26,277 nt of DNA from Myxococcota bacterium (lineage in GTDB: Bacteria > Myxococcota > JACRCW01): positions 1 to 26,277 of the forward strand of contig JBFMGU010000148.1 in NCBI GenBank assembly GCA_040752415.1. The letters are read 5' to 3'. The position numbers were made by a program, and so were the translations under genes. This document shows, piece after piece, positions 7,610 to 26,217 of the stretch. Every line of letters begins with the position of its first letter. Position 1 is the first letter of the stretch. The notes below the pieces were generated by a model. The model worked only from the letters and a program-made list of their open reading frames with translations. It was not told the origin of the DNA and did no database searches.

Positions 7610-7692
7610 GAACGCGTCCGTCGCCCGCCGGTTGACCACACCGGCACAAAAGGTTGAGCCTGCGCCTCCTGTGACCCTGATCCGGGAGGAGT

Positions 7693-9144: not shown

Positions 9145-9156
9145 AAGCCCGCCGCG

Positions 9157-9768
9157 TCAATCCTCGCGACACAGCGTGAAGTAGTGGTCCAGCGCCTTCT
9201 CGCCCTTGTACGCGGTGCCAATGGTGACGTGCTGGGAGACGCCGCGCAGGAAGTCGCGCGTGCCCTTGAAGACGAACATCTGCAGGCCCTTGCTGTTGGG
9301 CACCACGGTGGGCCAGCCGGGCACCACCTCGACGTCGGGGACCTGGAAGTAGTCCACCACCACGTCGCCACGCGCGGCCCACTCCGGCTTGTCCGTGCAG
9401 CGGTACGCCACGAAGTACCCCGGCCCGACGATGGGCCGCGAAGCGCCCTCGTTGAAGCCGAACAGGCGCGCGCTCCCGTCCTTGGGACGACACATGGGCT
9501 TCTGGAAGAAGCGGAACGCACGCGGCAGCGGCAACGTGTTGCGCCCGTGATGCTTCACCTCCGTGACCGCGCCGCGTGACGACGGCACCAGGTCCTCCAG
9601 CGTCAAGGACACCTTCCGCTCCGCCAGTTGGTAGAGGCGACGCTGCTGCGCGCGGTTGGTGGCGCTGAGCGCGCTCATGCGCCCCGCGTGGTCCAGGCCG
9701 TCCAGCAGCGTGCGCACCTGCTCGAAGGTGGAGGTGGAGGAATCCAGGAGCTCGGACAACGTCGTCAT
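9157..9768 (-). CDS. Hypothetical cytoplasmic protein
   Basis: MTTLSELL start coupled by ATGA to the upstream stop; globular-looking sequence (HHGRNTLP, GPGYFVA, RDFLRGVSQHVTIG); no recognised family. Confidence 0.75.
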   Translation of the reverse strand: MTTLSELLDSSTSTFEQVRTLLDGLDHAGRMSALSATNRAQQRRLYQLAERKVSLTLEDLVPSSRGAVTEVKHHGRNTLPLPRAFRFFQKPMCRPKDGSARLFGFNEGASRPIVGPGYFVAYRCTDKPEWAARGDVVVDYFQVPDVEVVPGWPTVVPNSKGLQMFVFKGTRDFLRGVSQHVTIGTAYKGEKALDHYFTLCRED

Positions 9769-10277
9769 GGGGTTCCTGCGTCGGGGGTGGCGGGCGCGGT
9801 CTTCTTCTTGAGCTCGTCGCGGACCTGGGCCTGGTAGGCCTCGAATCCCGGCGAGAGCGAGGTGTGCTCCATCAGCATGGCCTCGGTCTCGCAGTGCGGC
9901 TTGAGCGGCCCGTGTTTGTCCCAGAGGTAGACCACGGCGCGGTAGCCCGTGCCCTTCACTGCGCTCTTCCACAGCGGTCGCGCCGAGAACTGCGGGTGGC
10001 TCTTCACCCACGCCTTCAGCTGCTGCTTGGACGGGAGACACAGGCCCAGCCAGGCCGCCTCCGGTTTCACCTCGCCGGAAGCGGGCGCCTGCAGCGTCTC
10101 CACCAGCGTCACGCTGTCGGGGTGCTTGCCCTTGCCAAAGGTGACTTCCACCAGCGCCACCGCAGTGCTGCGCCCGACGAGCTGCGGCACGTTGAGCCGT
10201 TCACCGGCATGGAGGCTGGAGGTGAGGAGCAGCGCGGCAACGAAGGGGGTTGCCCCGCGCAGGCGAGACAGGAGCAT
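9765..10277 (-). CDS. Small secreted protein (candidate immunity protein)
   Basis: Sec signal ending SLHA; two Cys; starts 10 nt after the upstream gene's stop. Confidence 0.7.
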   Translation of the reverse strand: MLLSRLRGATPFVAALLLTSSLHAGERLNVPQLVGRSTAVALVEVTFGKGKHPDSVTLVETLQAPASGEVKPEAAWLGLCLPSKQQLKAWVKSHPQFSARPLWKSAVKGTGYRAVVYLWDKHGPLKPHCETEAMLMEHTSLSPGFEAYQAQVRDELKKKTAPATPDAGTP

Positions 10278-10287
10278 GGAAGCGGGA

Positions 10288-11145
10288 TCAGAACGCCTGC
10301 TTGGGACGCAGCACGTACACCTCGGTGCCGCCCGGCTGCGTGAAGCTCTTGTTCTGCGCGTTGTAGGTGGTGCCGGCGAGCCAGTCGTTGTTGGACTCGT
10401 AGGCGCCGTCGTGGTGCGCGCCGGTGACCTTCATGGGGTTGGTGCCGGTCACCACCTCGGTGTGCGCGGTGGACTCGCCGCTGCCCGGGTAGTCCTTCAC
10501 CAGCACGTCGCCCGGGCGGATCTGGGAGGGGTCGGTGATGCGGTCAAAGAGCTGGCTGTGCTTGGGCCAGTCCTCGGCCTTGGCGTAGTGCACCGTGCCG
10601 TCGGCCATCTTGACCGTGGGGGCCTTCACGCCCGCCTGGGTCAGCGTGTCGCCCACGAACTGGTTGCACTTGTTGTTGTTCTTCAGCCAGCTCAGCTCGG
10701 TGCGGTTGGGGATGCCACGGTTGCCCGAGAGGTTGGGGTGCGGGCTCTTGGGCGCCGAGTCATAGGCGTACTTCTCACCCTGGCGCTCCACCCGGTCCGC
10801 CGCGGCCTGCACAATGGCCTGGCCAAAGCGGCTCTCATTGGTGTTGCCCTGCACTTGGCCCGCGCCGCCCACGCGGCCGGCGTTGAACGCGTCAAACAGC
10901 TGCCCCGACTTGCCGGTGCGGGAGAAGCTGCTGCCCGAGCCGTTGCGGTCAAATGAGTCCACCAGCTTGAAGGCCGCGTCCAGCTCCGCCTGGCCCTTGA
11001 TCGTGCCGTCGCCATCCAGGTCCGCCTTCTTCACGTCGGCGGTGCTCACGCCGCTGCCCTGCAGCTTGTTGGCCAGGTCCGGGCTGTTGGTGTTGATGCC
11101 GTTCTGGAAGTGCTGGTTGAAGTTGCCGCGGTTGATGGTGGTCAT
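10288..11145 (-). CDS. EF-hand-like N-terminus plus NlpC/P60/CHAP-like Cys-His hydrolase domain
   Basis: DLDGDGTI loop; KCNQFVGDTLTQAG...IRPGDVLV...AHTEVV pattern typical of papain-like peptidoglycan amidases; RBS AGGAG; no signal peptide. Confidence 0.7.
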   Translation of the reverse strand: MTTINRGNFNQHFQNGINTNSPDLANKLQGSGVSTADVKKADLDGDGTIKGQAELDAAFKLVDSFDRNGSGSSFSRTGKSGQLFDAFNAGRVGGAGQVQGNTNESRFGQAIVQAAADRVERQGEKYAYDSAPKSPHPNLSGNRGIPNRTELSWLKNNNKCNQFVGDTLTQAGVKAPTVKMADGTVHYAKAEDWPKHSQLFDRITDPSQIRPGDVLVKDYPGSGESTAHTEVVTGTNPMKVTGAHHDGAYESNNDWLAGTTYNAQNKSFTQPGGTEVYVLRPKQAF

Positions 11146-11219: not shown

Positions 11220-11365
11220 ATGGGTTGTCGGGAATTCCCAAAAGGAAGTCAGGAGTCAGAAGTCAGGAGTCAGAAGGTGGTCTCGCGACGACGACGGGCG
11301 AGCGCCTTCTGACTTCTGCATTCTGACTCCTGACTTCCTTCCCTGGGGATCATCCGACAGCCCAT
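11220..11365. repeat. Long intergenic hairpin built from heptamer repeats (RAGTCAG / CTGACTY)
   Basis: Arms 11242-11277 and 11305-11340 match at 33/36 positions as inverted repeats; outer stem 11220-11231/11354-11365 matches 11/12; inner stem ctcgc/gcgag. Confidence 0.9.
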
Positions 11366-12885
11366 CAGAACTCGATGGGGCAGAAGGACACGTCGAAGGT
11401 GCCGCTGAACGCGGAAACCCGCAGCGGAGGTGAGTGGTAGAGGAACTGGTAACACATCTCCTCCTCGGTCCTCTCGCCGAAGTTCACCGGCTGGTCGCCG
11501 TCAAAGCCGGTGTAGGTGCAGGTCACTCGGATGGTGTCGCCGTTGCGGAAGTGCACGTCGGTGGGGAGGTTGGGCTGGGAGTCAAAGGCCCAGTTGTCCA
11601 CGGCGCCGAACGTCTCCTGCAGCTGCCCGCCGCGCCACCGCTCCGCGCGGATGTTGAGCCCGTGATTGTGCATGTGCGGGAACGCCGCGAAGATCCACGT
11701 GTCCGGCATGGTGACCGGGAAGCCGGAGACGGTGGCCGGGTTGCTGCAATCCGCGCTGACGGCGGGCTGGGCCGCGGTGGCCGAGAAGCCCGTGGGACCC
11801 ACCGCCACCATGCCCGCCTCGTTGGGGCGCAGCTCGGTGGTGGCGTAGATGCGCACGCCGCTGCGGTCCACGGTGCTGGCGCCGGGAGTGGGGTGGTAGT
11901 GCACCTGCAGCACCAGGCGCGCGCCGGGGGCCATGGGCATGCCCACGTCGGCGGGGAAGGAGAAGTTGGTGGTGCCGGGAGCCCAGCCGTACATGAAGCT
12001 CCAGTCCGCCTGCATGCTGCCGTCGTCGTCACCGCAGCCGAAGGGACCGTCCGGGACGTTGGTGCCGTCCCAGCCCTGGTCCCGGTAGAGCACCATGTGG
12101 TGCACCACCTCCGCGGCGTCGAGCTCCGGCTCAAAGCGCGTGATGTGCTGCATGGCTCCGTCGGGGACGGTGAAGCCGAAGCAGCTGTAGACGTTGCGGT
12201 CGGGGTCGTCGGGGACGGGGTAGGGGGCGTTCACGTCGGTGTCGTGCGCGCGGATGACCAGCGTGGGCGGGCCGGCGTCGGGGGCGTCATGGTTGCAGTC
12301 CGGGGGAGGCTGGGGGCCGCCGCTCACCGGGGTTCCCTCCGGCGCACCGGCCTCGGCCCAGCGACGGATGATGTCGCGCGTGGCGCTGTCCAGCGGGGCG
12401 CCGGGAGGCATGGCGTTGGAGACGGCGCTCGTGCGCTCGGCCATGCGCTCGTAGACGAAACCGAGGCCGCTGGGGGCGTCTTCCTGCGTGTCGGCGTAGG
12501 TCACCAGGCTCATCGGCGCGCCGTAGCAGCGCTGCGTGCCGTGGCACATCCAGCAGTGCTCCGCGAGGATGGGACGGATGTCCTGGTGGAAGGTGGGCGT
12601 GCCGCTGGAACCACCCGACGAGGACCCTGCGCCCGACGACGAAGACGACGCGGCGCCCGAGGAGCTGGTGTTGGCCGCGCCGGATGACGACGAGGACGCG
12701 CCGGATGACGACGAGGAAGCGCCGCCGGTGCTGGAGGACGAGGTGCTCCCCGCGCCGTTGGACGACGAGGAGCCGACGGTGCCGGGACCGGCGTCCAGGC
12801 CGCCCGAGGAGGAGGCGCTGGGTGTCGACGGAGTGCAGGCCGCGGCGAACAGGCCGCAGGAAAGGGCGAGGGCAGGCAGGCGCAT
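11365..12885 (-). CDS. Lipoprotein: monoheme cytochrome c domain fused to copper type II (PHM/DBH-like) monooxygenase
   Basis: Lipobox AAAC; SSSSG linker; TFHQDIRPILAEHCWMCHG...MPP (CxxCH plus candidate Met ligand); VHHMVLY, LQVHYH, FPHMH and EEEMC copper ligands. Confidence 0.85.
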   Translation of the reverse strand: MRLPALALSCGLFAAACTPSTPSASSSGGLDAGPGTVGSSSSNGAGSTSSSSTGGASSSSSGASSSSSGAANTSSSGAASSSSSGAGSSSGGSSGTPTFHQDIRPILAEHCWMCHGTQRCYGAPMSLVTYADTQEDAPSGLGFVYERMAERTSAVSNAMPPGAPLDSATRDIIRRWAEAGAPEGTPVSGGPQPPPDCNHDAPDAGPPTLVIRAHDTDVNAPYPVPDDPDRNVYSCFGFTVPDGAMQHITRFEPELDAAEVVHHMVLYRDQGWDGTNVPDGPFGCGDDDGSMQADWSFMYGWAPGTTNFSFPADVGMPMAPGARLVLQVHYHPTPGASTVDRSGVRIYATTELRPNEAGMVAVGPTGFSATAAQPAVSADCSNPATVSGFPVTMPDTWIFAAFPHMHNHGLNIRAERWRGGQLQETFGAVDNWAFDSQPNLPTDVHFRNGDTIRVTCTYTGFDGDQPVNFGERTEEEMCYQFLYHSPPLRVSAFSGTFDVSFCPIEF

Positions 12886-12934
12886 GGTAGCGCGAAGTCT
12901 AGCAGCGCGTGGTGGGGAACGCTGCAAACGCGAT

Positions 12935-13071
12935 GTCCGAGCCAAAGCGGTACTTCATACCGCAGTCCGAAGGGCGCGGACGCTCATCCGCCGCGCGCAA
13001 TTCCGCGCCTCAGCGCGCGTGGGCCAGTCCCACCTTCGGACTGCGGCATGAAGTACCGCTTTGGCTCGGAC
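12935..13071. repeat. 137-bp element with 39-bp terminal inverted repeats (MITE/REP-like)
   Basis: gtccgagccaaagcggtacttcataccgcagtccgaagg (12935-12973) matches the reverse complement of 13033-13071 at 38/39 positions. Confidence 0.85.
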
Positions 13072-14773: not shown

Positions 14774-17700
14774 TCAGCCCGGCGGCTGCAGCTCCTGGGC
14801 GCCGGCCTGCAGGTTCTCCTGCCACTTGAGGGCCTTCTGTCCACCCACGAGCTCGAACACGTAGCGCCCCGGCGGCAGCTTGAAGTCGGTGACCGGGAGG
14901 TCCAGCCCGGTGTCCATGTTGTCGACGAAGAGACGCGCGCCCGCGGGCTCCTTCAGCGTCACCGAGGAGTCCATGGGCTTGCAGGTCAAGGTCACCGAGC
15001 GCGTGAGCTCCTCCTCGCCCCTGGGCGTGATCTCCAGCTGCTCCGGCTCACAGCCCGGGCGGGTGACGCGCAGCGTGCCCTTCTGGCCAAACGGGATGCG
15101 CGGAATGCTGACGGCACCGCGACCCTTGAACTCGTTGTTCCACAGCACCCCGGCGTCGTCGGGCTGCGGGGCGACGGTGATCTTCGTCAGCGCGAACTCC
15201 ATCTGCACGTCGACGCTGTAGACCTCATTGGCAATGGCCTTGATCTGCTTCTTCGCCATGCGCGCGTCGGGGTGGGTCAGCACCAGCTCATGCACCGAGC
15301 CGGGCTCCACGTCGGAGATCACCATGGGCGTGGCGCCGGGACGGGGCTTCCCGTCGATCTTCACCAGCGCGCCCGAGGGGTTGGAGGTGATGCGCAGCGC
15401 GGTGCTCATGGGCTTGCCGCCAAAGGTGACGACGAGCGGCTCCCCCGGATTCAGCTCCACCTGCCTGATGTCCGGCTGGTAGCCATCCTGCGTGATGGTC
15501 AGCTTGTGTCCTCCGCTGGGCAGCACCAGCGCGGCGTGGGGCCCGGGCACCGCTTCCCCGTCGTCGACCTGGATCTTCGCCTCCGGCATGGCGCCCACCA
15601 CCACCAGCGTCCCGCGGCCCAGCAGGGGCGTGCGTTGCAGCAGGATGAGGGTGGCCGCGCCCAGCGCCAGACCGCCCATCAGCGCCAGCAGCATCGTCGT
15701 CACCTGCTGCTTGCGTGTGATGCCCACGGTCATGGCGGGACCGGTGGGGGCGCTGTGCAGGTCCTTGTGCGCGCTCGTGCGGACCAGCTCCACCGGCGAG
15801 GCGGAGGCCGCGGGAAGGGACGCGCGACCGCCACTGGTGCCGCCGGTCTTCTTGCCCTCGAAGGACTGCTCGTCGGTGATGACTTCCGCGGCCGACTTCT
15901 CGACGGCAACGCTGCGCTCCCGCATGGGCGCAACCGGCTCCTCCCGACGGATCTCCTTGCGCGCCGGCGTCTTGATGGAGACCTCGGTGGCCTTCAGCGC
16001 GTTGACCGCCTCGTCGAGCTTGCGGCGGACGGAGATCTCCAGGGAGGGCTGCAGCGCCGCGGCCTCCGAGCCGTCCATGGTGGGCAGGTCCTCGATGGGC
16101 GGTGCGCCCGCGGGGGCGCGGCGGGGATCGGGACCGCGTTTCTCGTCGGGACGCTTGTCCGCCACCGGGGCCGAGGCGCTGGTGGGCGGACGGTCGGGAC
16201 GCTTGTCGCTGGGCTCCCGCACGCTGGTGGGTGGACGGTCGGGACGTTTGTCGCTGGCCTCGCGCACGCTGGTGGGCGGACGGTCGGCCTTGCGCGCGCC
16301 ACCCTCGCTGCGCGGGTTGCCGAACGAGGGCGGCGGGGTCTCTCCCTTGCGCGCGCCAGCCTCGCTGCGCGGGTTGCCGAACGAGGGTGCCGGGGCTTCC
16401 CCCTTGCGCGCGGACAGGCTCGCCACCTGGCGGGTGGGCAACTGCTCGCTCTCGTCCTCGTCGTCATCGTCGGGGAGGATCTGGCGCGGGTCGGTCTGCC
16501 CGTCACCCACCAGCGTGGCGGAATCCACGTCCGGCTTGTCGTCAAACTCGCCGCGCGCCATGCGCGGGTCGGTCATCCCGTCGTCGTGCGGGGCCTGGAT
16601 GATCGCGGTGTCGGAGCGACGCGCGGGTTTGGCCTTGCGGGGCGGCTCGTCGGGAACGCGGCCGTCCACCGCGGTGCCGCTGGTGGGAGGCCGACGGGGC
16701 CCGGGCCGCGCGCCCTCCGGCGGAGGAACGGCGTCCAGGTCCACCGCGGGCTGGTTCACCAACGTGTTGCCGCGGCCATCGTCGTCGTCGTCGCGGCCGC
16801 CGGTGCGCTCGTCCTCGTCCTGGTCCTCGTCTTCTTCGTCCTCCGCCTGGGACTGGATGGACGTGGGCTCGGAGTGCTCGTCGGAGGCATCCCCGGTCTC
16901 GGTGGGCTGCATGAAGCTCTGCACCTTGCCGGTGAGCGGCTCCACCTCGCCGGTGTCGAACAGCACCGTGCCTTCACCCTTCTTCACCGGCTGCTGCTTG
17001 CGCGCCTCGTCGGCATCCTTCTGCGCGTCCTCCCAGCTCACGCGTTGGAAGAGCTGCTGGCGCTGCTGCTCCAGGCGGGCTCCCTCGGGGAAATGGTCGC
17101 GCACGTATTCGGCCAGCTCTTCCCGGGAGGGCTGCTTGCGCGAGGAGACCAGGTACCGCTCCAGGTCCGCCTGCATGTTGCTGGCCCACGGGTAGCGGTC
17201 CTCCGGCTTGGCGGCCAGCGCCTTCATCACCACGCGCTCCAGGTCGGGCGGCGTGTCCGCGCGCAGCGCCCGCGGCGGGATGAACTCCGCCTTGCGCACC
17301 TTCTCCAGGAGCGAGAAGTCGCTGTCCGCCTTGAACAGCCGCTCGCCGGTGATGAGCTCATGCAGGATCACGCCAATGGCGAAGATGTCCGCGCGGTGAT
17401 CCATCTGCTGCCCGCGCGCCTGCTCCGGCGCCATGTACGCGAACTTGCCCTTGAGGATGCCGGTCTGCGTGCGCACCAGGCGGTTGGCGGCGCGCGCAAT
17501 GCCAAAGTCGATGATCTTGACGTCGCCGTCGAAGCTGCACAGCACGTTCTGGGGACTGACGTCGCGGTGCACAATGGCCAGCGGCTTGCCCCGGCTGTCC
17601 TTGCGGCGGTGCGCGTAGTCCAGGCCCTCACAGATGCGCGTGGTGATGTGCACGGCGAGGGGGAGCGGGAAGCCGCCGCGGGCGCGCGCCCGGTCCCACA

Positions 17701-18013
17701 GTGCCCGCAGGTCCACGCCGGGCACGTATTCCATGGCGATGTAGTAGCTGTTGTTGATGCGCCCGAGGTCGAAGATCTGCGCAATGGAGGCGTGCGCCAG
17801 CTGCCCGGCGATCTTCGCCTCGTCGATGAACATGTTGATGAACTCGGAGTCCTCGCTGATCGTGGGGAGGATCCGCTTCACCGCCACCAGCTTCTCGAAG
17901 CCGGCCGCGCCCTGGGTCTTGGCGAGGTAGACCTCCGCCATGCCGCCAATGGCCAGCCGCTCCAGCAGCAGGTAGGGGCCAAAGGGGATGGGCTTGGGGA
18001 GCTTCGGGTCCAC
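14774..18013 (-). CDS. Membrane Ser/Thr protein kinase with C-terminal PEGA-like domains
   Basis: FGPYLLLERLAIGGMAEVYLA, VAVKRILP, HRDVSPQNVL, DFGIA, GKFAYMAPEQ; long acidic/Pro linker; TM LLALMGGLALGAATLILL; ITSNPSGALVKIDG PEGA-type repeats. Probable start GTG 18013. Confidence 0.93.
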   Translation of the reverse strand: MDPKLPKPIPFGPYLLLERLAIGGMAEVYLAKTQGAAGFEKLVAVKRILPTISEDSEFINMFIDEAKIAGQLAHASIAQIFDLGRINNSYYIAMEYVPGVDLRALWDRARARGGFPLPLAVHITTRICEGLDYAHRRKDSRGKPLAIVHRDVSPQNVLCSFDGDVKIIDFGIARAANRLVRTQTGILKGKFAYMAPEQARGQQMDHRADIFAIGVILHELITGERLFKADSDFSLLEKVRKAEFIPPRALRADTPPDLERVVMKALAAKPEDRYPWASNMQADLERYLVSSRKQPSREELAEYVRDHFPEGARLEQQRQQLFQRVSWEDAQKDADEARKQQPVKKGEGTVLFDTGEVEPLTGKVQSFMQPTETGDASDEHSEPTSIQSQAEDEEDEDQDEDERTGGRDDDDDGRGNTLVNQPAVDLDAVPPPEGARPGPRRPPTSGTAVDGRVPDEPPRKAKPARRSDTAIIQAPHDDGMTDPRMARGEFDDKPDVDSATLVGDGQTDPRQILPDDDDEDESEQLPTRQVASLSARKGEAPAPSFGNPRSEAGARKGETPPPSFGNPRSEGGARKADRPPTSVREASDKRPDRPPTSVREPSDKRPDRPPTSASAPVADKRPDEKRGPDPRRAPAGAPPIEDLPTMDGSEAAALQPSLEISVRRKLDEAVNALKATEVSIKTPARKEIRREEPVAPMRERSVAVEKSAAEVITDEQSFEGKKTGGTSGGRASLPAASASPVELVRTSAHKDLHSAPTGPAMTVGITRKQQVTTMLLALMGGLALGAATLILLQRTPLLGRGTLVVVGAMPEAKIQVDDGEAVPGPHAALVLPSGGHKLTITQDGYQPDIRQVELNPGEPLVVTFGGKPMSTALRITSNPSGALVKIDGKPRPGATPMVISDVEPGSVHELVLTHPDARMAKKQIKAIANEVYSVDVQMEFALTKITVAPQPDDAGVLWNNEFKGRGAVSIPRIPFGQKGTLRVTRPGCEPEQLEITPRGEEELTRSVTLTCKPMDSSVTLKEPAGARLFVDNMDTGLDLPVTDFKLPPGRYVFELVGGQKALKWQENLQAGAQELQPPG
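16145..16412 (-). repeat. In-frame tandem repeats in the kinase linker (57 bp x2 and about 45 bp x3)
   Basis: ARKGE[A/T]P[A/P]PSFGNPRSE[A/G]G twice; DRPPTS..DKRP three times; ccttgcgcgcg recurs at 16288, 16345 and 16402. Confidence 0.9.
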
Positions 18014-18213
18014 GGCTCGTCGGTGGCTGGCGTCAGGGGGCCGGACGTTAGGGCAGGACGGGAGCCGCTGGAAGAGGTCATTCAACGGTGACACGGCCGT
18101 GGGCTTTGAGCCCGGGCATCCCCCGGCACCGCTGGCGTCCATGCTCGGGACGGTGGGCGGCGGTCAGGAACGCCCCAGGTGAGGCGGCGCGGGCAAGTGT
18201 CGTCGGGACGCGC

Positions 18214-18282
18214 TCAGCGCCGCGGCTCGGACGCGCGCACCGACCACACCACCAGCAACGCAAGCACGTCAGCGTGGGCAGG
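18214..18282 (-). repeat. Direct-repeat copy of the last 70 bp of the matrixin gene (22067-22136)
   Basis: 66/70 identical with one 1-nt deletion; still encodes VLALLVVWSVRASEPRR-stop. Confidence 0.95.
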
Positions 18283-18427
18283 GGGATGCGCGACAGCCTT
18301 CGGCACGCCGCCGCGTGTCCAGCGTCGAGCCACATGGAGTGCGCGACCTACCGCCGGCTTCTGCGCCGCGGCATTCGGAGCGAGCCGGGTGGGCGCGAAG
18401 AGCGGCGCCGCCCGTCGCGCGAACGCG

Positions 18428-20986
18428 TCAAACCTTCCGCAGCGAGCAGACCGTGTCGTACCACGACTGCATTCCCGTGATTGGCGAGGGCTGGATGGGC
18501 AGGATGGCGTTGATGTTGAACCCCGCGCCGCTGCCGTCGCGCTTGGGGTCCCACCACAGCGCGTCGGTCAGGTCGGCGTCCTCGGCGAGCACCGACTCGT
18601 CGTAGCCGGGGCCCTGCGGACGGGGGCCGCGGTTGGCGGTGGCCGCGCGCCCGTGGAACTGCTGCCCGAGGCTGTTGCTGACCGCGAGCACCCGCGGGTG
18701 AATCCCCTCGGTGACAAAGGCGCGAATCCGGGCCGACCCGAGCTTCTCCCCCGTGGCGCGCCACGTATTCCCGCGCGGTCGCCACGTCGTGATCTCCACC
18801 ATGTCTCCGGTGCGGATTCCGAGGCGCTTCGCTGTGGCCGCATTGATCCACATCGGGTTGTCGTGAACGATCTCGGACAGGTACTTCTGTTGTGCGGTTC
18901 GGCCCTGGGTGTGCACGTTCCATTTGAACGTCACCAGGAAGAAGCGGTCCGGCGGAAGGTGCTGATGCGTCGGAATCGGAACGTACGCGGGCCAGCCGTC
19001 GTCCTTGACGTTGACCTTCCCCGCGGCGGCGCTCACCGTCGAGCTGCGGACTTCGAAGCGGCGTGATGGCGTCTTGAAGCCGCGCAGGATGCGCTCCCCC
19101 TTGCGCAGGCCCACGGCCTCCTCGGTCCCCTTCACGGGGTCCTTGCGGTACGCGATGCCAGTGCGCTCGTCGACGCGGAGCTCCTCGAGCGCACCAGTCA
19201 CCGGGCGGGCGTAAATCTGATACGCCTTGGGCGTGCTCGCGTCGACGTAGACGCCCCGCTGGCGCATGAAGTCGAACCCGTCGGCGCAATCGCCCGGCGG
19301 GATGTTCCGGCACTGGTGGCGCACGTAGTCCTCGTGGTCGCGGAATGCGAAGTACCGCGCCACGTCGGGTCCCAGGCGCTTTCCCAGCGTGATGAGCACG
19401 TCGGCGAAGCTCACGCACTCCGCGGGCGGCGGAACCAGGGGCTGTCGCAGCGCAAGGTACGGCTGCAGCTCGTAGGAGTTGCGGGTGTCCAGGCCCCAGC
19501 GCTCCGTATAGGTCGCGTCCGGCAGGAGGAGGTCCGCGTAGTGGGCGGTCTCCGAATAGACGACGTCGCTGCACGCGTGGAACGGAATCAGCGACTCGTC
19601 CTTGAGCACCTCCACGGCGAGGCTCCGGCCTTCCGGCCACGTCGTGGGGGAGGCGAGCGTATAGGTCAGATACACCTGCAGGCGCGCCCGCTTCTCCTTG
19701 AGGTACGCGTAGACGAGCTGGCCGACCTTCATCTTCTGCCAGTGGTTGGCCAGCGGGTATTCGGGCGGGTCTTCGAGGTCCGTCCGGATCTCCGGCTTCG
19801 GCGGGACGGGCTGCGGCGGAGGATACTTGACCGGGTCGATGCGCTCGGACTCGCCGTAGCAGTAGCCACCGGGCCTGCCGATGCTTCCCACCAGCGCGTT
19901 CAGGGTCACCACCGCGCGATCGTTGTTGAAGCCGTTGTAATGCGCATGGCTACCGCGATTGGTGAACGCCGCGCACCGCGGGCGGGCGCGCGCGAACTCC
20001 AACGCAATGCGCTCGATGTCCCGCGCGGCGATGCCGCTGACCTTCTCCGCCCAGGCCGGCGTGTAGGGCTTGTAGAACTCCCGGAGCTCCTCGGGTGAGA
20101 CGTTGACCCACTCCGCAATGAACTCCCGATCAATCTCGTTGGCGGCGAGGATGACGTGACCCATCGCCAGGGCGATTGCGCCTTCCGTGCCGGGCAGGGG
20201 TGCCAGCCACTCATCGCTGCGCCCCGCGGTGTTGGAGAGGCGGACATCCAGCGTGACGAGGCGAGCGCCATTGTCGTACCGACCGCGCACGACGCGGCGC
20301 AGGAAATGGATGTGCCCCTGGTGCCCCTCGTAGAAGTTGGAACCGAAGTTGAGCAGGTACCTGGTGTGCTCGGCATCCACCGTCTCCCAATCCGAGTCAC
20401 CGAGGCACGCGTAATTCGCCGCGCGCTTGTTGAGCGAACACAAGGCGCGGTGGTTGAGCACGACGGGAGAGCCGATGGCGTTCATGAAGCGATCCACCAC
20501 GTCGGAGATGCGCGAGCGTCCGTAGTGGATGGCGACCTGCTCGGGGTGTCCGGCGTCCATGGTGGCGCGGATGCGGGTGCTCAGCTCGCGGTAGGCTTCC
20601 TCCCAGGTCACACGCCGCCACAGCCCCTCGCCCCGTTGTCCCACGCGCTTCAAGGGATGGAGCAGGCGCTCCGGATAGGTGTTGATCGTCACGCCACTCT
20701 GACCCTTGGCGCACAGGTGCTGCCCGTTGTTCGGATCACGCGGGTTCCCGGAGAGCTTCACGAGCCTCCCGTCGATGACGTGGCCGATGATTCCGCAGAC
20801 CGACGAGCAATTGAGGCAGACGCCCGGTACCTGGGTGGCGCGCCGGTAGTCGTTGGGCGCGGTGACACTCGTGGTGGCGGCGGCTGCCAAAGCCACCGTC
20901 TCGCCGGGAGTGAGGCGGATGACGTCCCCGAGGGAGAGGCCCGCCAACGCACCGATTCCCGACGTGATGAATTCTCGCCGATCCAT
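18428..20986 (-). CDS. Tat-exported molybdopterin oxidoreductase catalytic subunit, DMSO reductase family (PsrA/ArrA/AnrA-like)
   Basis: MDRREFI twin-arginine signal with GAGG RBS; C-x2-C-x3-C-x27-C-AK [4Fe-4S] motif; PLKRVGQRGEG; candidate Cys Mo ligand in NHRALCS; SETAHYADLLLPDATYTER; C-terminal molybdopterin dinucleotide-binding domain. Confidence 0.93.
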   Translation of the reverse strand: MDRREFITSGIGALAGLSLGDVIRLTPGETVALAAAATTSVTAPNDYRRATQVPGVCLNCSSVCGIIGHVIDGRLVKLSGNPRDPNNGQHLCAKGQSGVTINTYPERLLHPLKRVGQRGEGLWRRVTWEEAYRELSTRIRATMDAGHPEQVAIHYGRSRISDVVDRFMNAIGSPVVLNHRALCSLNKRAANYACLGDSDWETVDAEHTRYLLNFGSNFYEGHQGHIHFLRRVVRGRYDNGARLVTLDVRLSNTAGRSDEWLAPLPGTEGAIALAMGHVILAANEIDREFIAEWVNVSPEELREFYKPYTPAWAEKVSGIAARDIERIALEFARARPRCAAFTNRGSHAHYNGFNNDRAVVTLNALVGSIGRPGGYCYGESERIDPVKYPPPQPVPPKPEIRTDLEDPPEYPLANHWQKMKVGQLVYAYLKEKRARLQVYLTYTLASPTTWPEGRSLAVEVLKDESLIPFHACSDVVYSETAHYADLLLPDATYTERWGLDTRNSYELQPYLALRQPLVPPPAECVSFADVLITLGKRLGPDVARYFAFRDHEDYVRHQCRNIPPGDCADGFDFMRQRGVYVDASTPKAYQIYARPVTGALEELRVDERTGIAYRKDPVKGTEEAVGLRKGERILRGFKTPSRRFEVRSSTVSAAAGKVNVKDDGWPAYVPIPTHQHLPPDRFFLVTFKWNVHTQGRTAQQKYLSEIVHDNPMWINAATAKRLGIRTGDMVEITTWRPRGNTWRATGEKLGSARIRAFVTEGIHPRVLAVSNSLGQQFHGRAATANRGPRPQGPGYDESVLAEDADLTDALWWDPKRDGSGAGFNINAILPIQPSPITGMQSWYDTVCSLRKV

Positions 20987-20993
20987 GTCGACC

Positions 20994-21668
20994 TCAACCC
21001 TTGCGCGAGGGGGGATCGAAGTTGGCCTGGAGGAGCGCCCAGGTCTCAATCTCATACGAGCGCGGGTCGTGGTTCCGTCCCTCGGGAACTTTTCTTTCCA
21101 GGTCCCGATCCACGCCCCGATAGACGACCTGGGGCTTGGTCCCCTTGTCGGGTTTGAGCGGGGTCAGCTCCGCGTCGTAGCGGCGACGGAATGCGCTGAT
21201 GCGGCTCGCTGGATCGTTGAGGTCTCCGAAGATGATGGTGCCGCCGGGACAGGTCTCGACGCACGCGGGCTCCATGCCCACCGCAACCCGGTGCGAGCAG
21301 AAGTCGCACTTGTCCGCCACTTCGGACGCCGGGTCGACGTAGATTGCTCCGTAGGGGCAGGCGTCTTCGCAGGCCCCGGTGCCATCGCACGTGGCCTTGT
21401 TGATCCGCACCACACCGTCGGCGCCGCGCTGGATGGACCTGGTCGGGCATGACGTGACGCAGGGGGCGTCCTCGCACTGCTGGCACACCACCGGCAGGAA
21501 CTGGCGAACCACGCGTGGGAACGTGCCCTTGTCCCGGTAGTACACCTTCGTCCGGAAGTGCCCCAGGGGAACGTGGTTCTCGACCTTGCAGGCGACGGAG
21601 CACGCGTGACAGCCCGTGCACCGTTCCAGGTCGAATGCCATGCCGTAGCGCGGGGATGGGTTGGTCAC
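20994..21668 (-). CDS. Four-cluster Fe-S electron-transfer subunit (DmsB/PsrB/TtrB-like)
   Basis: CTGCHACSVAC, CQQCEDAPCVTSCP, CDGTGACEDACP, KCDFC...PACVETCP; GTG 21668 preceded by GGGAG. Confidence 0.93.
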   Translation of the reverse strand: MTNPSPRYGMAFDLERCTGCHACSVACKVENHVPLGHFRTKVYYRDKGTFPRVVRQFLPVVCQQCEDAPCVTSCPTRSIQRGADGVVRINKATCDGTGACEDACPYGAIYVDPASEVADKCDFCSHRVAVGMEPACVETCPGGTIIFGDLNDPASRISAFRRRYDAELTPLKPDKGTKPQVVYRGVDRDLERKVPEGRNHDPRSYEIETWALLQANFDPPSRKG

Positions 21669-21790
21669 GGCTGTCTCCCTGTTGTGACGGGGCAACACCA
21701 TCCTCCACGGTGCAGGGGCGACTCAACTCCAGGCCGGCGCACTTCCGCGTTGACCGAATCCCACGTGCTCCACCAGCGTTCCGTTCGGAC

Positions 21791-21947
21791 GGTTGCGCTG
21801 CGCGGGGCTCCCCAGCTTGGGCCCGCTGTACATCACCGAGGCGCGGTGGTCGGTGTGGCAGCCCCAGCACGCGACCCACCTCGTGCAGCACCACGGTTTG
21901 CAGGTCCACCGCGTCTTCAGGCGGGGGCGTGTCGCCGAGAAACGGTA
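21791..21947 (-). pseudogene. Degenerate fragment of the matrixin catalytic region
   Basis: Aligns to 22213-22372 at roughly 85% by eye, with small deletions causing frameshifts; DAVDLQTVVLHEVGRVLGL versus DAVDLQSVVLHEVGHVLGLRH. Confidence 0.9.
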
Positions 21948-22066
21948 ATGGCGCGCTGTTTTCCGGAATGGCGTGGCTCAATGACCCTCAGTCTACCGCT
22001 CCGCTGGCCATGTGCACACGGCCCGAGCGGCCGCTTCTGCCGACCTTTCCCTCAGTCGGAAACCGT

Positions 22067-22750
22067 TCAGCGCCTCGGCTCGGACGCACGCACCGACCAC
22101 ACCACCAGCAACGCAAGCACGATCAGCGAGGGCAGGAGCACCGCGCGGGGTGAGGGGTCGGCCGGTGGCGCGGGGTACAGCGTGCACACCGCGGTGACGT
22201 CGTCCGGTTGCAGGTTGCGCTGCGCGGGGCTTCCCAGCTTGAAGCCGCCGTACATCACCGAGGCGCGGTGCCCGGTGTGGCGCAGTCCCAGCACGTGACC
22301 CACCTCGTGCAGCACCACGCTCTGCAGGTCCACCGCGTCCTTGGGCGGGGGGAGTGTCGTCGAGAAACGGTAGGTGCCGTTGAGCAGCAGGGTGGCACCG
22401 CGGATCTCGCCGCTGTTGGGATCCGCGTCCACGTTGGTGTGCGCCACCAGCGAGGCATCAAAGGGCCACCCCTCCGTCACCACGCGCACCACCACCGGCG
22501 CGTCCGACGTCACCGCGAAGCGCAGCGACGTGCAGGGGGGCGTGGCCCAGGCCTGGAACCCGGCGGTGACGGCCGCCTCCGCATCCGGCGACAACGACGA
22601 CAGCGACACATCCGCGCGCCAGGTGAGGGCGGGCGTGCGCCAGCGCAGGCGTGCGCCGTGGGGCGACACCTCCTGCTCAAAGGCATGCACGGGTGAGAAG
22701 GAGAGGAGGAGTCCCAGTGGGATGAGGAAGCGAGGGAAGGCCGCCATCAT
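22067..22750 (-). CDS. Matrixin-family (M10) zinc metalloprotease with C-terminal membrane anchor
   Basis: Signal peptide ending VHA; HEVGHVLGLRH zinc motif; SVMY Met-turn; hydrophobic tail followed by RR. Confidence 0.9.
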   Translation of the reverse strand: MMAAFPRFLIPLGLLLSFSPVHAFEQEVSPHGARLRWRTPALTWRADVSLSSLSPDAEAAVTAGFQAWATPPCTSLRFAVTSDAPVVVRVVTEGWPFDASLVAHTNVDADPNSGEIRGATLLLNGTYRFSTTLPPPKDAVDLQSVVLHEVGHVLGLRHTGHRASVMYGGFKLGSPAQRNLQPDDVTAVCTLYPAPPADPSPRAVLLPSLIVLALLVVWSVRASEPRR

Positions 22751-22771
22751 CCCACCGGGAAGCCGGGGCAA

Positions 22772-24178
22772 TCAGCCCTCGGGGTCCGTCTCGACGTTGG
22801 CGTCGGCCTCGGTGATGTCATCCGCGCCGGTCTCGGCCAGCAGCGCGTCGAGCTCGGGGTCGGCGTCGGCCTGGGCCGGGTCCGCCGCGGTCTCCGGCAG
22901 CGTCTCCTCCGCCAGGCCGAAGCAGGTGGAAGTGTCGCCCTCGTTGAACTCGAAGAACCCGGGGCCGCCACCGTCGCTGGCGCCGGCGTCACCCACGCCA
23001 CCGTCGGGCGGGTCGTTCTGCGCGATGGTGTCCAGGTACGCGGTGCGCAGGCCGCCCGGACCCCAACACTCATGCAGGTGGCCCAGCACCTCCACGGGGA
23101 GCGGACGCAGGTGCACCGCAATGGCGTCGGCGCGACCACCCAGCCCGGCCGCCCAGCGCGCGCGCAGCGCGAACAGCTCGATGCCCGCGAGCGGCCAGAA
23201 GTCGCCCACGGCGCGCGTGCGCAGGTGACCACCCACGCCCGGTCGACGGAAGAAGTCCACCGCCCAGTCACGCGGGATGGCCTGGGGATCGTCGATGGGA
23301 CGGACGTTCCGGTAGACCACGCGTCGACCGCGCGCGTCGGTGCGGTGGTTGGCCCAGAGCACGTGCACGCCGCCGGACTTGCCGGGGCCGTTGGGGAACA
23401 CCTCACTGACCGCGCCCAGGTTCATGTGGAAGCGGCCACCGCCGGAGTTGGGGCCCATCTTGAGGAACACGCCGGTGAGCAGGATGCGGGGCGGCGGGAG
23501 CGTTCCGCCGTCGGAGGCGCCACCGTCGTCCGCCACGCCACCGTCGGGACGCGGGGGCAGGGCCACCACCAGGTAGCGCAGGCGGTTGGGCCCCACGCGG
23601 GTGATGGTCAGGCGCACCATGGTGCCATCCACCGGGCGCTGCCAGGAGGCGTAGGGATGACCCTCCAGCGTGGTCCCGCGACGATCCGGGGGGACGGTCT
23701 GGGCCACGTCGCGGATGAAACGCATCACCGCGCGCGCGTCGGCGGTGGCCTCCCGGCCGGCGGTGGCGGCGCGGTACAGCAGCACGGCGGGGTCACCAAT
23801 GCGGGCCGCCGCGGCCTCCGGGCTGTCATCCTCGAACAGGATCTCGTCGACGTTGATGACGTCCGTGGCGTCCACCTCCGCGGGTGCGCCGCTGCTGGTG
23901 GAGCTGCTGCTGCTGGATGACGACGTGCCGCCCGTGGAGCTGCTGGACGAGGAGCTGCTGGCCGAGGAGGTGGTGGCCCCCGACGACGAGCTGCTCGACG
24001 ACGAGCTGGTCGTGCCGCCGTTGGACGACGACGAGGAGGACGAGGACGACGACGAGGACGAGGAGCTCGACGAGGTCGTGCCCGTGGTGGTGGTTCCTTC
24101 GCCCGTCGTGGTGCAGGCGGTGCCGAGCGCCGTGGCCAGCGCCAGCATCCCGAGAGGACGTGCAACAGCCCGAGTCAT
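22772..24178 (-). CDS. Hypothetical lipoprotein with long poly-Ser linker
   Basis: ATG 24178 with GGAGG 6 nt upstream; lipobox LGTAC; about 70-residue Ser/Thr/Gly tract; beta-rich domain; acidic C-terminus. Confidence 0.8.
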   Translation of the reverse strand: MTRAVARPLGMLALATALGTACTTTGEGTTTTGTTSSSSSSSSSSSSSSSSSNGGTTSSSSSSSSSGATTSSASSSSSSSSTGGTSSSSSSSSTSSGAPAEVDATDVINVDEILFEDDSPEAAAARIGDPAVLLYRAATAGREATADARAVMRFIRDVAQTVPPDRRGTTLEGHPYASWQRPVDGTMVRLTITRVGPNRLRYLVVALPPRPDGGVADDGGASDGGTLPPPRILLTGVFLKMGPNSGGGRFHMNLGAVSEVFPNGPGKSGGVHVLWANHRTDARGRRVVYRNVRPIDDPQAIPRDWAVDFFRRPGVGGHLRTRAVGDFWPLAGIELFALRARWAAGLGGRADAIAVHLRPLPVEVLGHLHECWGPGGLRTAYLDTIAQNDPPDGGVGDAGASDGGGPGFFEFNEGDTSTCFGLAEETLPETAADPAQADADPELDALLAETGADDITEADANVETDPEG

Positions 24179-24245
24179 TACCAACCTCCATGGTGGGGTT
24201 GTTGGTGGAGGATGCGCATAGGCCCCACCCCGATGCGCGGGCTAA

Positions 24246-24296
24246 AGCATCGGCGCGGCCAGGGCGAGGGTCAACGAATTTTTTTTGCAAAACAAA
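24246..24296 (-). promoter_or_regulatory. Candidate sigma70 promoter with AT-rich UP element
   Basis: Minus strand: TTGACC (24274-24269), 17-nt spacer, GATGCT (24251-24246), preceded by TTTGTTTTGCAAAAAAAATT, which stands out in this high-GC DNA. Confidence 0.5.
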
Positions 24297-24361
24297 CGCG
24301 TGTGATGAGGCGCACGGACAACGAGAGCGGGACCCGGGCGCAAACTCGTGCGTTTGTTGGC

Positions 24362-25129
24362 TCAGGCGGCGCCGCCGGGGAAATAGCGCGGGTCCAGCTC
24401 GGCGGGCGTGAGGCCCATCTGGCGCGCCAGCGCGCTGTTGTGCTCGCGGACGATGCGCGCGTAGTCCTCGGGTTTCAGCTCGTTGTTGCTCAGCGCGTCG
24501 AGCACGGTGTTGGCGGCCAGGGACAGCGGCAGGAGCAGCACGCCCACCAGCGCGCCCATGCAGCCGCCCGCCAGCAGCCCGGACACAAAGCCCGAGACGG
24601 ACGCGTTGGTGGCGTTGCCCAGGAAGCCCTGGGAGAGGCTGTAGGCGGTGAAGCTGATGGCCCCGACGATGCCACCGCCGAGCGCGAAGCACGCCGGTGC
24701 TCCCAGGCATCCGCCCAGGCCCAGCTTGTTCACCGTCTCGTGACGGCGCTCGTCGTTGTCCAGCGCCTCGAACTTCTCGCGGATGTCCGGGCTGATGTTG
24801 ATGGCGCGCAGCTCGGCGTCGTGGACCTTCGCCCCGTCGCCGCGGACCACCCGCACCGACGAGCCGGTCACCTTGAGCAGCAGCGCACGCTCCTCGAAGA
24901 GCCGGATGCGCTCCTCGTGCGTCTGCGCGCCCGGCGTGGCGGGAGGCTGCACTTCACCCACGGGCTCGGTGGCCGGCGGCGTGGGCGGCACGGTGGGGAT
25001 GGGCGGCTCGTCGACGGGCGCGGGCACCGCGGGCGGGGCTTCCGGCGCGGGAGGGACCGGCGGCGCTTCCTGTGCGCGCAGCACGGACGACGACAAGAGG
25101 AGCAGGGAGCACAGACACCAGCGGGACAT
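24362..25129 (-). CDS. Hypothetical exported/membrane protein
   Basis: MSRWCLCSLLLLSSSVLRA signal with GGAGG RBS; Pro-rich linker; two Gly-rich hydrophobic segments. Confidence 0.75.
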   Translation of the reverse strand: MSRWCLCSLLLLSSSVLRAQEAPPVPPAPEAPPAVPAPVDEPPIPTVPPTPPATEPVGEVQPPATPGAQTHEERIRLFEERALLLKVTGSSVRVVRGDGAKVHDAELRAINISPDIREKFEALDNDERRHETVNKLGLGGCLGAPACFALGGGIVGAISFTAYSLSQGFLGNATNASVSGFVSGLLAGGCMGALVGVLLLPLSLAANTVLDALSNNELKPEDYARIVREHNSALARQMGLTPAELDPRYFPGGAA

Positions 25130-25239
25130 GAGGGCCTCCGAGGCCGCGCATCCGACGCAATGACCTCGGGTGGTGTCAAGGTGCGGGCCCGGTTGTCTCC
25201 GCGTCCTCGTCGACCCACATTGGGCCACGGGAGCGGACC

Positions 25240-26217
25240 ATGGTGCGACGGGGCAGGGTGGCCTTCTGGTTGTTCGTGGGCATGGTGACGACGGTGGGAA
25301 GCCTTCACGGGATGGTTGCGGGCGGCTATTCCGCGCTGGTTTCCGACGGGGACGGCGGCTGGCTCGCACTCTCCGACGACAAGAACCATCCCCGCATCTA
25401 CCACCTGGCCATCCCGCTCTCCCGCACCGACGGAGGCGTGGCCCACGTGACCGGCGTAACGCCGTTGCGCGACGAAATGGGTGAGCCGCTGGCCGAAGGG
25501 ACGGTGGACCCGGAAGGCCTGGCGCTGCTGCCGCCCCACGCGCTGCTGGTCTCCAGTGAGGGGTTTACGAAGCACGGTGTGCCGCCGAGGATCTGGCGCG
25601 CGGACCGCAAGACCGGTCGCACCCTGGAGCGCCTCCCGCTGCCTCCCGACGTCATTCCGGACCACAAAGTCTCCGAGGAACAGACCCGCGGCGTGCTGGA
25701 CAACTACGGCTTCGAGGGGCTCACGCTCTGTCCCGACGGGCGCACGTTGCTCGCCGCCACCGAGGCGCCGCTGAAGCAGGACGGTCCGTGGCCGGCGGCG
25801 GGAGGCCGTGGTCGCGTGCTGGTCTACGACGTGAAGAGCGCACCCGCGCGCCTGACCGGCGAGCACCGCTACCCGCTCCAGGCTCCTTCCGCCGGCGCGT
25901 GGGTGCACGGGCTCACCGCCATGCTGTGCCTGGACGACGGACGCGTCCTCACCCTGGAGCGCTCCTGGGGGCGCGACGTGGGCTTCGACATCTCGCTCTT
26001 CCTCGGACGCCTGCCCGCCAAGGGGCCCGGTCTCGTCGAGAAGAAGCTGCTGGCGCGCATCAATGACCTGGGCGTGCGCATGGACAACTTCGAAGGCCTG
26101 GCCCCCGGCCCGCGTCTCCCCGACGGACGCCACACCGTGCTCATCATCAGCGACGACAATTTCCTTCCCGACCAGGTGAGCGAGGTGGTGTGGGTGGCCT
26201 GGCGGGATCCGGGCTGA
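25240..26217 (+). CDS. Esterase-like activity of phytase family protein (phytase-like beta-propeller)
   Basis: GGYSAL...ALSDD, DPEGL, VSSEG, NYGFEGLTLCPDG, LTLERS, DNFEGL, IISDDNF...Q; N-terminal signal or hydrophobic segment. Confidence 0.88.
   Translation: MVRRGRVAFWLFVGMVTTVGSLHGMVAGGYSALVSDGDGGWLALSDDKNHPRIYHLAIPLSRTDGGVAHVTGVTPLRDEMGEPLAEGTVDPEGLALLPPHALLVSSEGFTKHGVPPRIWRADRKTGRTLERLPLPPDVIPDHKVSEEQTRGVLDNYGFEGLTLCPDGRTLLAATEAPLKQDGPWPAAGGRGRVLVYDVKSAPARLTGEHRYPLQAPSAGAWVHGLTAMLCLDDGRVLTLERSWGRDVGFDISLFLGRLPAKGPGLVEKKLLARINDLGVRMDNFEGLAPGPRLPDGRHTVLIISDDNFLPDQVSEVVWVAWRDPG

Follow-up and report, generated by a model that had tools for sequence, protein, structure and literature searches.

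What does a periplasmic molybdoenzyme do for its host when no membrane anchor is encoded beside it? The question is raised by a two-gene locus of a Myxococcota bacterium on contig JBFMGU010000148.1 (C55), whose whole length of 26,277 nucleotides is the window analysed here; the genome comprises 11.0 Mb in 520 contigs at about 70% G+C. The locus encodes a ferredoxin-like subunit (B) and, directly after it, a catalytic subunit (A) of the MopB/dimethyl sulfoxide (DMSO) reductase superfamily that carries a twin-arginine translocation (Tat) signal. An earlier reading of the sequence, the original prediction, saw in this BA pair a candidate for oxyanion or sulfur respiration. Our analysis points instead to selenium nutrition. 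B and A may constitute a soluble periplasmic selenium-oxyanion reductase, most likely converting selenate to selenite, for assimilation and not for respiration, a reading to which we assign a probability of about 0.45. That the pair has a selenium-linked role of some kind is a slightly better than even proposition.

Selenium genes in the neighbourhood of the family

A scan of species genomes returned 332 loci encoding this enzyme family, and the locus counts given here rest on the best 80 of them. Neighbouring genes were assigned by Pfam and NCBIfam scans in 26 family loci and by phmmer over all 80, and a single theme, selenium, recurred in different phyla. A substrate-binding protein (SBP) matching TIGR04553, the 'putative selenate ABC transporter substrate-binding protein' (ABC, ATP-binding cassette), accompanies the pair with PhnC/PhnE-type partners in 13 of the 80 loci. 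SelD is found nearby in five, an OprP-like porin in seven and an orphan TupA-like oxyanion-binding protein in three. At least one of these four occurs in 18/80 loci, and in 14 of the 47 whose flanks each reach 5 kb or more. In 12 of the 13 loci with an SBP, coordinates identify the adjacent binding protein with the genome's own TIGR04553 match over the cut-off; the thirteenth genome lies outside the 50 that were searched.

The arrangements vary from one lineage to another. In two Dechloromonas metagenome-assembled genomes (MAGs; L028, L031) the order is SBP-B-A-ATPase-permease, and the Acidobacteriota MAG with the closest A (L011, 73% identity) reads B-A-porin-SelD-SBP-ATPase-permease. Three Burkholderiales MAGs (L038, L053, L073) have B-A-SBP-ABC, and divergent operons are present in L048 and L054. 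In Methylotenera (L032, L035), SelD and the SBP lie upstream and the porin downstream. The simplest task for a periplasmic enzyme encoded inside an importer operon is to convert a nutrient from the form met in the environment to the form that is transported.

The most complete association is a Polaromonas MAG (L086, 4601-17322) with an entire selenoneine cluster, in the order senC, senB / senA-B-A / egtD / SBP-ABC. Here B and A follow senA directly on the same strand, and EgtD has the TIGR04553 ABC importer as its neighbour. The neighbouring SelD, TIGR04553, SenA, SenB and EgtD proteins all pass their NCBIfam cut-offs (Table 1). The transporter beside sen clusters is described in the accessible text of a selenoneine preprint (10.1101/2022.04.13.486033), in which portion the strings 'reductase' and 'molybd' do not occur.

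These neighbourhoods apply equally to a periplasmic selenite reductase of the SrrA kind, or to a selenium or tellurium detoxification enzyme, that would take selenite to Se(0) or selenide. Membership of the family in the PsrA/PhsA/SrrA-like radiation favours such an activity, SrrA being placed in the PsrA/PhsA lineage in the available part of a MopB survey (PMC10100899). The position of BA inside the Dechloromonas importer operon suggests, however, that the product of the enzyme is the transported species, and insoluble Se(0) outside the cell could not feed an ABC importer. Thiols, moreover, already reduce selenite without an enzyme. We regard this alternative as distinctly unlikely.

An oxidative role has also to be weighed, in which BA would be an oxidase or dehydrogenase of hypophosphite, phosphite, arsenite or sulfite feeding cytochrome c, with the PhnD-type importer taking up a phosphorus-type product. 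The adjacent binding proteins do match TIGR01098 (228-242 bits) and PhnD (172-208 bits), the adjacent porins resemble the phosphate-selective OprP, and, like arsenite oxidases, a soluble BA that has a high-potential cluster could pass electrons to cytochrome c. Yet it is the TIGR04553 cut-off that the binding proteins pass, not that of PhnD (261), and adjoining SelD, SenA, SenB and SenC indicate selenium rather than phosphorus. The 26 scanned loci yielded neither ptxD nor htx genes. This reading is left with only a slim chance.

Co-occurrence across genomes points in the same direction as the neighbourhoods. TIGR04553 exceeds its cut-off in 38 of 50 BA genomes, compared with 43/201 genomes sampled from the order to which most of these belong. 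This background includes one unpublished genome (G276), without which it stands at 42/200 for TIGR04553 and 156/200 for SelD. Within the order sample, three of the four BA holders have TIGR04553, in one case (G311) 1.3 kb from A. A plain Fisher test (38/12 vs 40/157) gives p = 3e-13, a value that ignores relatedness, mixes taxa and shows direction only.

In the genome of the window, the TIGR04553 importer and SelD are on other contigs, and the selenium module is present but dispersed. Contig C505 carries an OprP-like porin, a TIGR04553 SBP (348.7 bits; cut-off 250), a permease and an ATPase, and C171 carries SelD with one in-frame TGA (7395-8327, plus strand). We read this TGA as a selenocysteine codon, which would imply selenocysteine machinery in the host.

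Two sets of neighbours stand somewhat apart. In L026, L027 and L029 a TupA-like binding protein (239 bits; TupA cut-off 400) lies just downstream of A, followed by an OprP-like porin, and no ABC permease or ATPase was found within 4 kb. In L068 (9279-10619) and L078 (12566-13858), EgtB/SenA-like open reading frames (ORFs) of the FGE-sulfatase type lie just downstream of A, with weak similarity to the SenA of L086 (E 8e-18 and 1e-15).

Architecture of the catalytic and electron-transfer subunits

Subunit A has the hallmarks of a Cys-ligand member of its superfamily: the Pfam domains Molybdop_Fe4S4, Molybdopterin and Molydop_binding, a CX2CX3CXnC motif and a Cys in the ligand column. Its longest ORF spans 18428-21055 on the minus strand, with a likely start at ATG 20986, seven nucleotides downstream of GAGG. 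The N-terminus, MDRREFITSG, contains an RR pair that is invariant among 74 family sequences. In HMMER alignments, C183 falls in the Mo-ligand Cys column of PsrA (2vpw) and ArrA (6cz7) and is the predicted Mo ligand, flanked by the basic residues H179, R180, K187 and R188. B ends seven nucleotides before A begins, Shine-Dalgarno-like motifs precede both genes, and the two are, on this layout, translationally coupled.

The features first noticed in the sequence hold up on inspection. The Tat signal resides on the catalytic subunit only, as the RR pair opens A, and B lacks a signal peptide because its first Cys motif begins within about 10-20 residues of the start. The CX2CX3CX27C motif and the Cys-ligand segment are confirmed in both sequence and alignment, as is the order B then A on the minus strand. 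The ArrA active-site string that had been given for comparison, SHSSICAE, is close to the actual one; the ArrA chain of 6cz7 has SHSSVCAE at the aligned place.

Subunit B matches Fer4_11 (E 1.8e-25) and departs from Psr/Arr-type B subunits in its cysteines. It has 15 Cys with a third motif of the form C-x2-T-x2-C-x3-CP, compared with the 16 Cys in four 4-Cys motifs of those proteins. This third motif aligns column for column with CKGHRHC...CP of EbdB (2ivf_B) and CKGAQAC...CP of PcrB (4ydd_B), whereas the same columns read CIACGAC in PsrB and CIGCKKC in ArrB, the CxxCxxCxxxCP pattern. The substitution is a family trait: the second position is non-Cys in 70 of 74 family B ORFs and Cys in one, with three unmatched. 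It also occurs in the B of a 43% identical paralogue, where no NrfD was seen, and the 4-Cys form is found in the B subunits of an NrfD-anchored clade (3/3 checked) and of the anchored enzyme that this genome itself encodes on contig C73.

In NarH, EbdB and PcrB, the 3-Cys pattern gives a [3Fe-4S] cluster at the Mo-distal end of the electron wire, typically of positive potential. The 3-Cys motif of B is likewise predicted to bind a [3Fe-4S] cluster distal to Mo. A Psr-type catalytic subunit paired with a PcrB/NarH-like 3-Cys ferredoxin appears as an architectural variant in its own right, and our literature search did not find this combination described.

Placement within the superfamily and distribution

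All curated models score the two subunits well below their cut-offs. The nearest for A is PhsA (NF012032) at 331.3 bits against a cut-off of 694, and the same model gives 349 and 327 bits for the family members L011 and L056. The DmsA, YnfE and YnfF models (TIGR02166, NF041885, NF041884) reach 218, 158 and 143 bits (cut-offs 778, 1675, 1650), and A has Cys in the column of their Ser ligand. Scores are lower still for ArrA (NF041714; 123.3 bits, cut-off 1600) and TtrA (NF011567; 80 bits, cut-off 1750), and B gives 141.8 bits with ArrB (NF041715; cut-off 450) and 185.1 with TtrB (NF011569; cut-off 416). The type II models yield 143.7 bits for A (TIGR03479, covering SerA, PcrA and NarG; cut-off 985) and 112.7 for B (TIGR03478; cut-off 480.7) despite the 3-Cys third motif, so that B resembles type II subunits in this feature and is not, by these scores, a member. 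Among solved structures, the best relatives of A are PsrA (2vpw, E 1e-57) and ArrA (6cz7, E 3e-34).

The family is nevertheless large and coherent. A word-indexed protein search found at least 120 proteins of 841-899 residues with 57-73% identity to A, labelled 'molybdopterin-dependent oxidoreductase' or 'thiosulfate/polysulfide reductase chain A' in their sources. In a library clustered at 50% identity and searched exhaustively, the family is a single representative (69% identity), followed by others at 46, 45, 42 and 41%. Of 62 full-length neighbouring representatives, 61 pass no NCBIfam cut-off, which leaves few named anchors for a tree; the exception, P0249, passes that of PhsA and is 29% identical to A. 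In a FastTree phylogeny of 67 rows, whose support values are local and which holds no named PsrA, SrrA, SrdA, AnrA, ArxA or SoeA references, the 11 family rows form one group (support 100, stem 0.45). This group is nested in an unnamed clade of 16 rows and is separate from the PhsA group and from two ArrA-like rows.

On the combined evidence of cut-offs, anchor and Cys count, BA lies outside PhsA, ArrA, TtrA, YnfE/DmsA and type II, and by descent, as far as sequence can tell, it forms a new subfamily within the PsrA/PhsA/SrrA-like radiation. It may be among the unnamed Cys-ligand lineages with PsrA-like best hits that are described in the available part of the MopB survey (PMC10100899). The core of the original prediction, an uncharacterised, soluble, periplasmic and anchorless enzyme of the PsrA/PhsA/ArrA-like Cys-ligand radiation, agrees with this placement. 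The label 'orphan' suits the pair in its own window and does not suit the family, with its 332 genome loci.

The best 80 of these 332 loci are spread over Acidobacteriota, Planctomycetota, Armatimonadota and Alpha-, Beta- and Gammaproteobacteria. Named holders include Duganella, Massilia, Rugamonas, Pseudomonas asuensis and luteola, Kushneria, Roseomonas, Methylotenera, Dechloromonas, Zoogloea, Polaromonas and Azohydromonas, genera that for the most part comprise aerobic or facultative heterotrophs. The distribution is patchy: four of 201 sampled genomes in the order holding Duganella have the family, and in the phylum of the window it is confined to this genome among 201 searched, plus the 43% paralogue. 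Such a pattern suggests horizontal spread.

A horizontally acquired BA might be no more than an idle or decaying gene pair, and both its isolation in the phylum and the lack of adjacent selenium genes in the window would suit that explanation. The sequence itself argues otherwise. Of the 852 positions, 221 do not vary across 74 sequences, among them the RR pair and the greater part of the ligand segment, and the protein of the window keeps 255 of 257 near-invariant columns, so A is not a remnant and appears to be under the same constraint as its relatives. Both coupled frames are intact, every cluster and ligand Cys is present, and the G+C content of B and A (0.66-0.70) is close to that of the rest of the window (0.66-0.75). 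We consider idleness or decay highly improbable.

Probable loss of the membrane anchor and the source of electrons

The BA pair itself is the only conserved unit. B lies directly upstream of A in 73 of the 80 loci, several of the remainder being contig-edge fragments, and tblastn searches with the two coding flanks of the window returned no matches in the 80 loci. NrfD and TorD were not detected in the 26 loci scanned by Pfam, and the family thus lacks there the anchor of Psr/Phs-type enzymes. In one Hyphomicrobiaceae MAG (L061), an FdnI-like cytochrome b (8486-9322, plus strand; TIGR01583, 151 bits, cut-off 116) is encoded directly upstream of B and may serve this single lineage as a membrane anchor. 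Three loci (L032, L035, L073) have cytochrome c genes close to BA. Beside the pair in the window no donor gene is present, which bears out the expectation that its electrons come from elsewhere.

A sister clade in Betaproteobacteria (L102-L104, from genomes G442, G275 and G268), about 40% identical to A, retains an anchor. In its loci, genes for a PhnD-like binding protein and a histidine kinase stand side by side and are followed by B, NrfD, A, a TorD-like chaperone and additional ferredoxins. The family looks like a descendant that lost the NrfD anchor of this related B-NrfD-A-TorD clade, and a loss of this kind would explain why B precedes A.

These comparisons bear on the reading closest to the original prediction, in which BA would be a dissimilatory or detoxifying reductase of thiosulfate, polysulfide, tetrathionate, arsenate or antimonate with its anchor or cytochrome encoded elsewhere. 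The respiratory gene set and sensor kinase of the sister clade, the cytochrome b of L061 and the two NrfD genes on other contigs of the genome all lend themselves to this interpretation, as do the best curated and solved matches, PhsA and PsrA for A, and TtrB and PsrB for B. The curated scores, however, fall far short of their cut-offs, the 26 scanned loci lack NrfD and TorD, and the NrfD of contig C73 sits with a ferredoxin and a MopB protein of its own. Polysulfide and thiosulfate couples lie at about -0.26 to -0.40 V, a poor fit to an enzyme with a predicted high-potential [3Fe-4S] exit and no quinol site. The links to the importer, SelD and the sen cluster would also be left unexplained. 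We hold this reading to be rather unlikely, and its respiratory element in particular finds no support here, given the mostly aerobic holder genera, the absence of a quinol-oxidising anchor in nearly all loci and the links to selenium-assimilation genes.

Proposed role and mechanism

From the observed anatomy, family membership, neighbourhood links and co-occurrence, we infer a substrate, a reaction direction and an electron donor for BA. The two subunits would form a soluble heterodimer that the Tat system exports in folded form on the signal of A, with B carried along. A would hold a Mo-bis(pyranopterin guanine dinucleotide) (bisPGD) cofactor ligated by Cys183 and one [4Fe-4S] cluster, and B three [4Fe-4S] clusters together with the predicted [3Fe-4S] cluster at the end far from A. 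Electrons would be delivered by a periplasmic carrier, most likely a c-type cytochrome, or by an FdnI-like cytochrome b in a few lineages. A selenium oxyanion of high potential would then be reduced in the periplasm, most likely selenate to selenite, and the PhnD-type ABC importer (TIGR04553) would bring the selenite into the cell for delivery to SelD. On this view the enzyme would serve selenium acquisition, not energy conservation.

This scheme is consistent with the chemistry of selenium. Selenate is the dominant selenium species under oxic conditions, is inert to thiols and needs an enzyme for its reduction. The selenate/selenite couple lies at about +0.48 V, and cytochrome c can donate to it, as for SerABC and PcrAB; a couple that c-type cytochromes can drive suits an enzyme that lacks an anchor and is predicted to have an exit cluster of high potential. 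PhnD/PtxB-type binding proteins bind phosphite-like pyramidal anions, and selenite is pyramidal too. For Comamonas testosteroni S44, aerobic reduction of Se(VI) has been reported to be sensitive to tungstate and to depend on an enzyme that was not identified (PMC4236595). Selenate reduction for assimilation, taken by itself, falls somewhat short of even odds. More tentative is the full proposal for the family, namely a dedicated, cytochrome-fed assimilatory selenate reductase whose product is taken up by a selenite-specific PhnD-type importer.

Several points weigh against selenate as the substrate and against a selenium role more generally. Among solved or curated proteins, the closest relatives have polysulfide or thiosulfate as substrate, and SrrA has selenite, while the known selenate reductases SerA, YnfE/F and SrdA belong to other clades. 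To our knowledge, the substrate of TIGR04553 has never been tested and its name is a database guess. A selenium gene adjoins BA neither in this window nor in 62 of the 80 loci, and among the Planctomycetota and Armatimonadota holders, the nearest relatives of the protein in the window, TIGR04553 was found in 0 of 7 genomes (G002-G008). The neighbourhood and co-occurrence counts ignore kinship and set 50 BA genomes from several phyla against a background from a single order. Co-occurrence with SelD was set aside as uninformative, with 47/50 BA genomes and 157/201 background genomes positive. The [3Fe-4S] assignment derives from a sequence pattern alone, and no electron donor is conserved across the loci scanned.

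Comparison with known systems

PsrABC and PhsABC, represented by the Thermus thermophilus structure 2vpw and by NF012032, are the best solved and curated match, B also aligning to 2vpw (E 7e-44). In common with BA, they have a Tat signal confined to A, Cys as the Mo ligand and the N-terminal [4Fe-4S] motif. BA differs in having no NrfD/PsrC anchor, one Cys fewer in B and an A subunit longer by about 90-100 residues, and it is distant from true PhsA in score and identity as well as in its mostly aerobic hosts.

In its working, BA is most likely closer to the type II enzymes PcrAB and SerABC, an analogy that extends to their soluble periplasmic state without a membrane anchor and to the 3-Cys third motif of PcrB and EbdB. 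Both PcrAB and SerABC receive electrons from periplasmic cytochromes, and their substrates are oxyanions of high potential. In contrast to these enzymes, the ligand in A is Cys, not Asp, and the FS0 motif of A is all-Cys, and neither a heme-b gamma subunit nor a TorD-like chaperone is encoded beside BA.

ArrAB of Shewanella (6cz7) is likewise a soluble AB heterodimer with a Cys ligand, and the His before this Cys and the basic residues after it align with those of A. The similarity is more remote than that to PsrA, ArrB has a 4-Cys third motif, and the arsenate-binding motif RGRY reads YGRS in A. SrdBCA shares the order B before A. SrdBCA and SrrABC, compared here by description only, differ from BA as anchored respiratory enzymes of anaerobically growing Bacillota. 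Both are selenium-oxyanion reductases of Cys-ligand chalcophile clades according to the available part of the MopB survey (PMC10100899).

The acquisition of selenium from selenate by aerobes is unsettled, and the routes most often invoked are side reactions of sulfate assimilation or of respiratory nitrate and DMSO-type reductases. In the portions available of the literature searched, including Lin et al. 2015 (PMC5322559), PMC9312934 and the selenoneine preprint (10.1101/2022.04.13.486033), whose supplementary figure may show neighbouring genes, no MopB enzyme was tied to selenium assimilation, the importer, SelD or sen. Should the assimilatory selenate reductase reading prove true, aerobes would have a specific gene for selenate use that is tied to an importer, SelD and the selenoneine cluster. 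In oxic habitats, selenium acquisition for selenoproteins, selenouridine and selenoneine would have this reaction as its first committed step. What databases call a 'putative selenate transporter' would turn out to carry selenite, and the widespread label 'thiosulfate/polysulfide reductase chain A' would be corrected. Cultured Duganella, Massilia, Kushneria or Polaromonas make the question testable.

Features of the locus, window and host genome

Table 1. Features of the BA locus in the window, and curated-model scores of the selenoneine-cluster proteins in locus L086.
Feature	Positions	Strand	Basis or remark
B, ferredoxin-like electron-transfer subunit, no signal peptide	20994..21668	-	start GTG 21668 (AGGGAG upstream) or ATG 21641
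Third Cys motif of B, C85-DG-T88-GA-C91-EDA-C95-P, 3 Cys instead of 4	21354..21389	-	
Upstream intergenic region, presumed promoter of BA operon	21669..22066	-	no recognisable element
A, Tat-exported Mo/W-bisPGD catalytic subunit	18428..20986	-	852 aa; Pfam, NCBIfam, structure alignment
Twin-arginine signal region of A (MDRREFITSGIGALAGLSLG...ALAAAA)	20876..20986	-	from sequence
FS0 [4Fe-4S] motif of A, C57-x2-C60-x3-C64-x27-C92	20711..20818	-	Pfam Molybdop_Fe4S4, E 6e-11
Active-site segment of A, N178-HRALC183SLNKRAAN	20414..20455	-	aligned to PsrA 2vpw and ArrA 6cz7; conserved in family
L086 SenC-type SelD fusion			TIGR03169, 518 bits (cut-off 310)
L086 SenB			TIGR04348, 443 bits (cut-off 300)
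L086 SenA			NF041186, 433 bits (cut-off 420)
L086 EgtD			TIGR03438, 351 bits (cut-off 291)
L086 SBP			TIGR04553, 364 bits (cut-off 250)

The genes flanking the pair, likewise on the minus strand, encode a PEGA-domain Ser/Thr kinase (14774-18142) and a matrixin-like peptidase (22067-22771). As first reported for this locus, NrfD/PsrC, TorD and a two-component regulator are missing from its surroundings, with no match among the 36 window ORFs scanned. Scans of positions 18100-22100 gave no promoter-like (sigma-70-like) site and three terminator-like sites where 2.0 are expected, none usefully placed, and an Rfam scan of the whole window gave no family at gathering score.

Across the whole genome, NrfD was found on contigs C73 and C94 only and TorD on C137 only. 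The genome search for molybdenum cofactor (Moco) genes that had been suggested as a check recovered the Moco-insertion protein MoeA (167.7 bits) and seven other MopB loci. The MobA model reached 45.7 bits against a cut-off of 151.85, a threshold attained in only one of 14 control genomes. The O2-dependent HemF that had been noted in the host is encoded in the window (PF01218, E 3.9e-126).

The C73 genes (G000, locus L100, 4406-12796) form a separate anchored molybdoenzyme set. An 802-aa MopB protein lies on one strand, and the divergent genes encode a Fer4_11 ferredoxin, NrfD, a histidine kinase and a sigma-54 response regulator.

Elsewhere in the window, four long ORFs have no Pfam or NCBIfam match (22772-24184, minus; 24212-25288, plus; 9949-10956, plus; 2222-3217, minus), and some of these may not be genes in so G+C-rich a window. 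The flanking kinase (1122 aa, PEGA domain C-terminal) is one of two Ser/Thr protein kinases, the other lying at 7693-9144 on the plus strand. Taken with the size and G+C content of the genome, these kinases agree with the original prediction's description of the host as myxobacterium-like. A 526-aa ORF (11365-12945, minus strand) has both copper type II ascorbate-dependent monooxygenase domains of the PHM/DBH-like kind (E 8e-15 and 3e-12), which are uncommon in bacteria.

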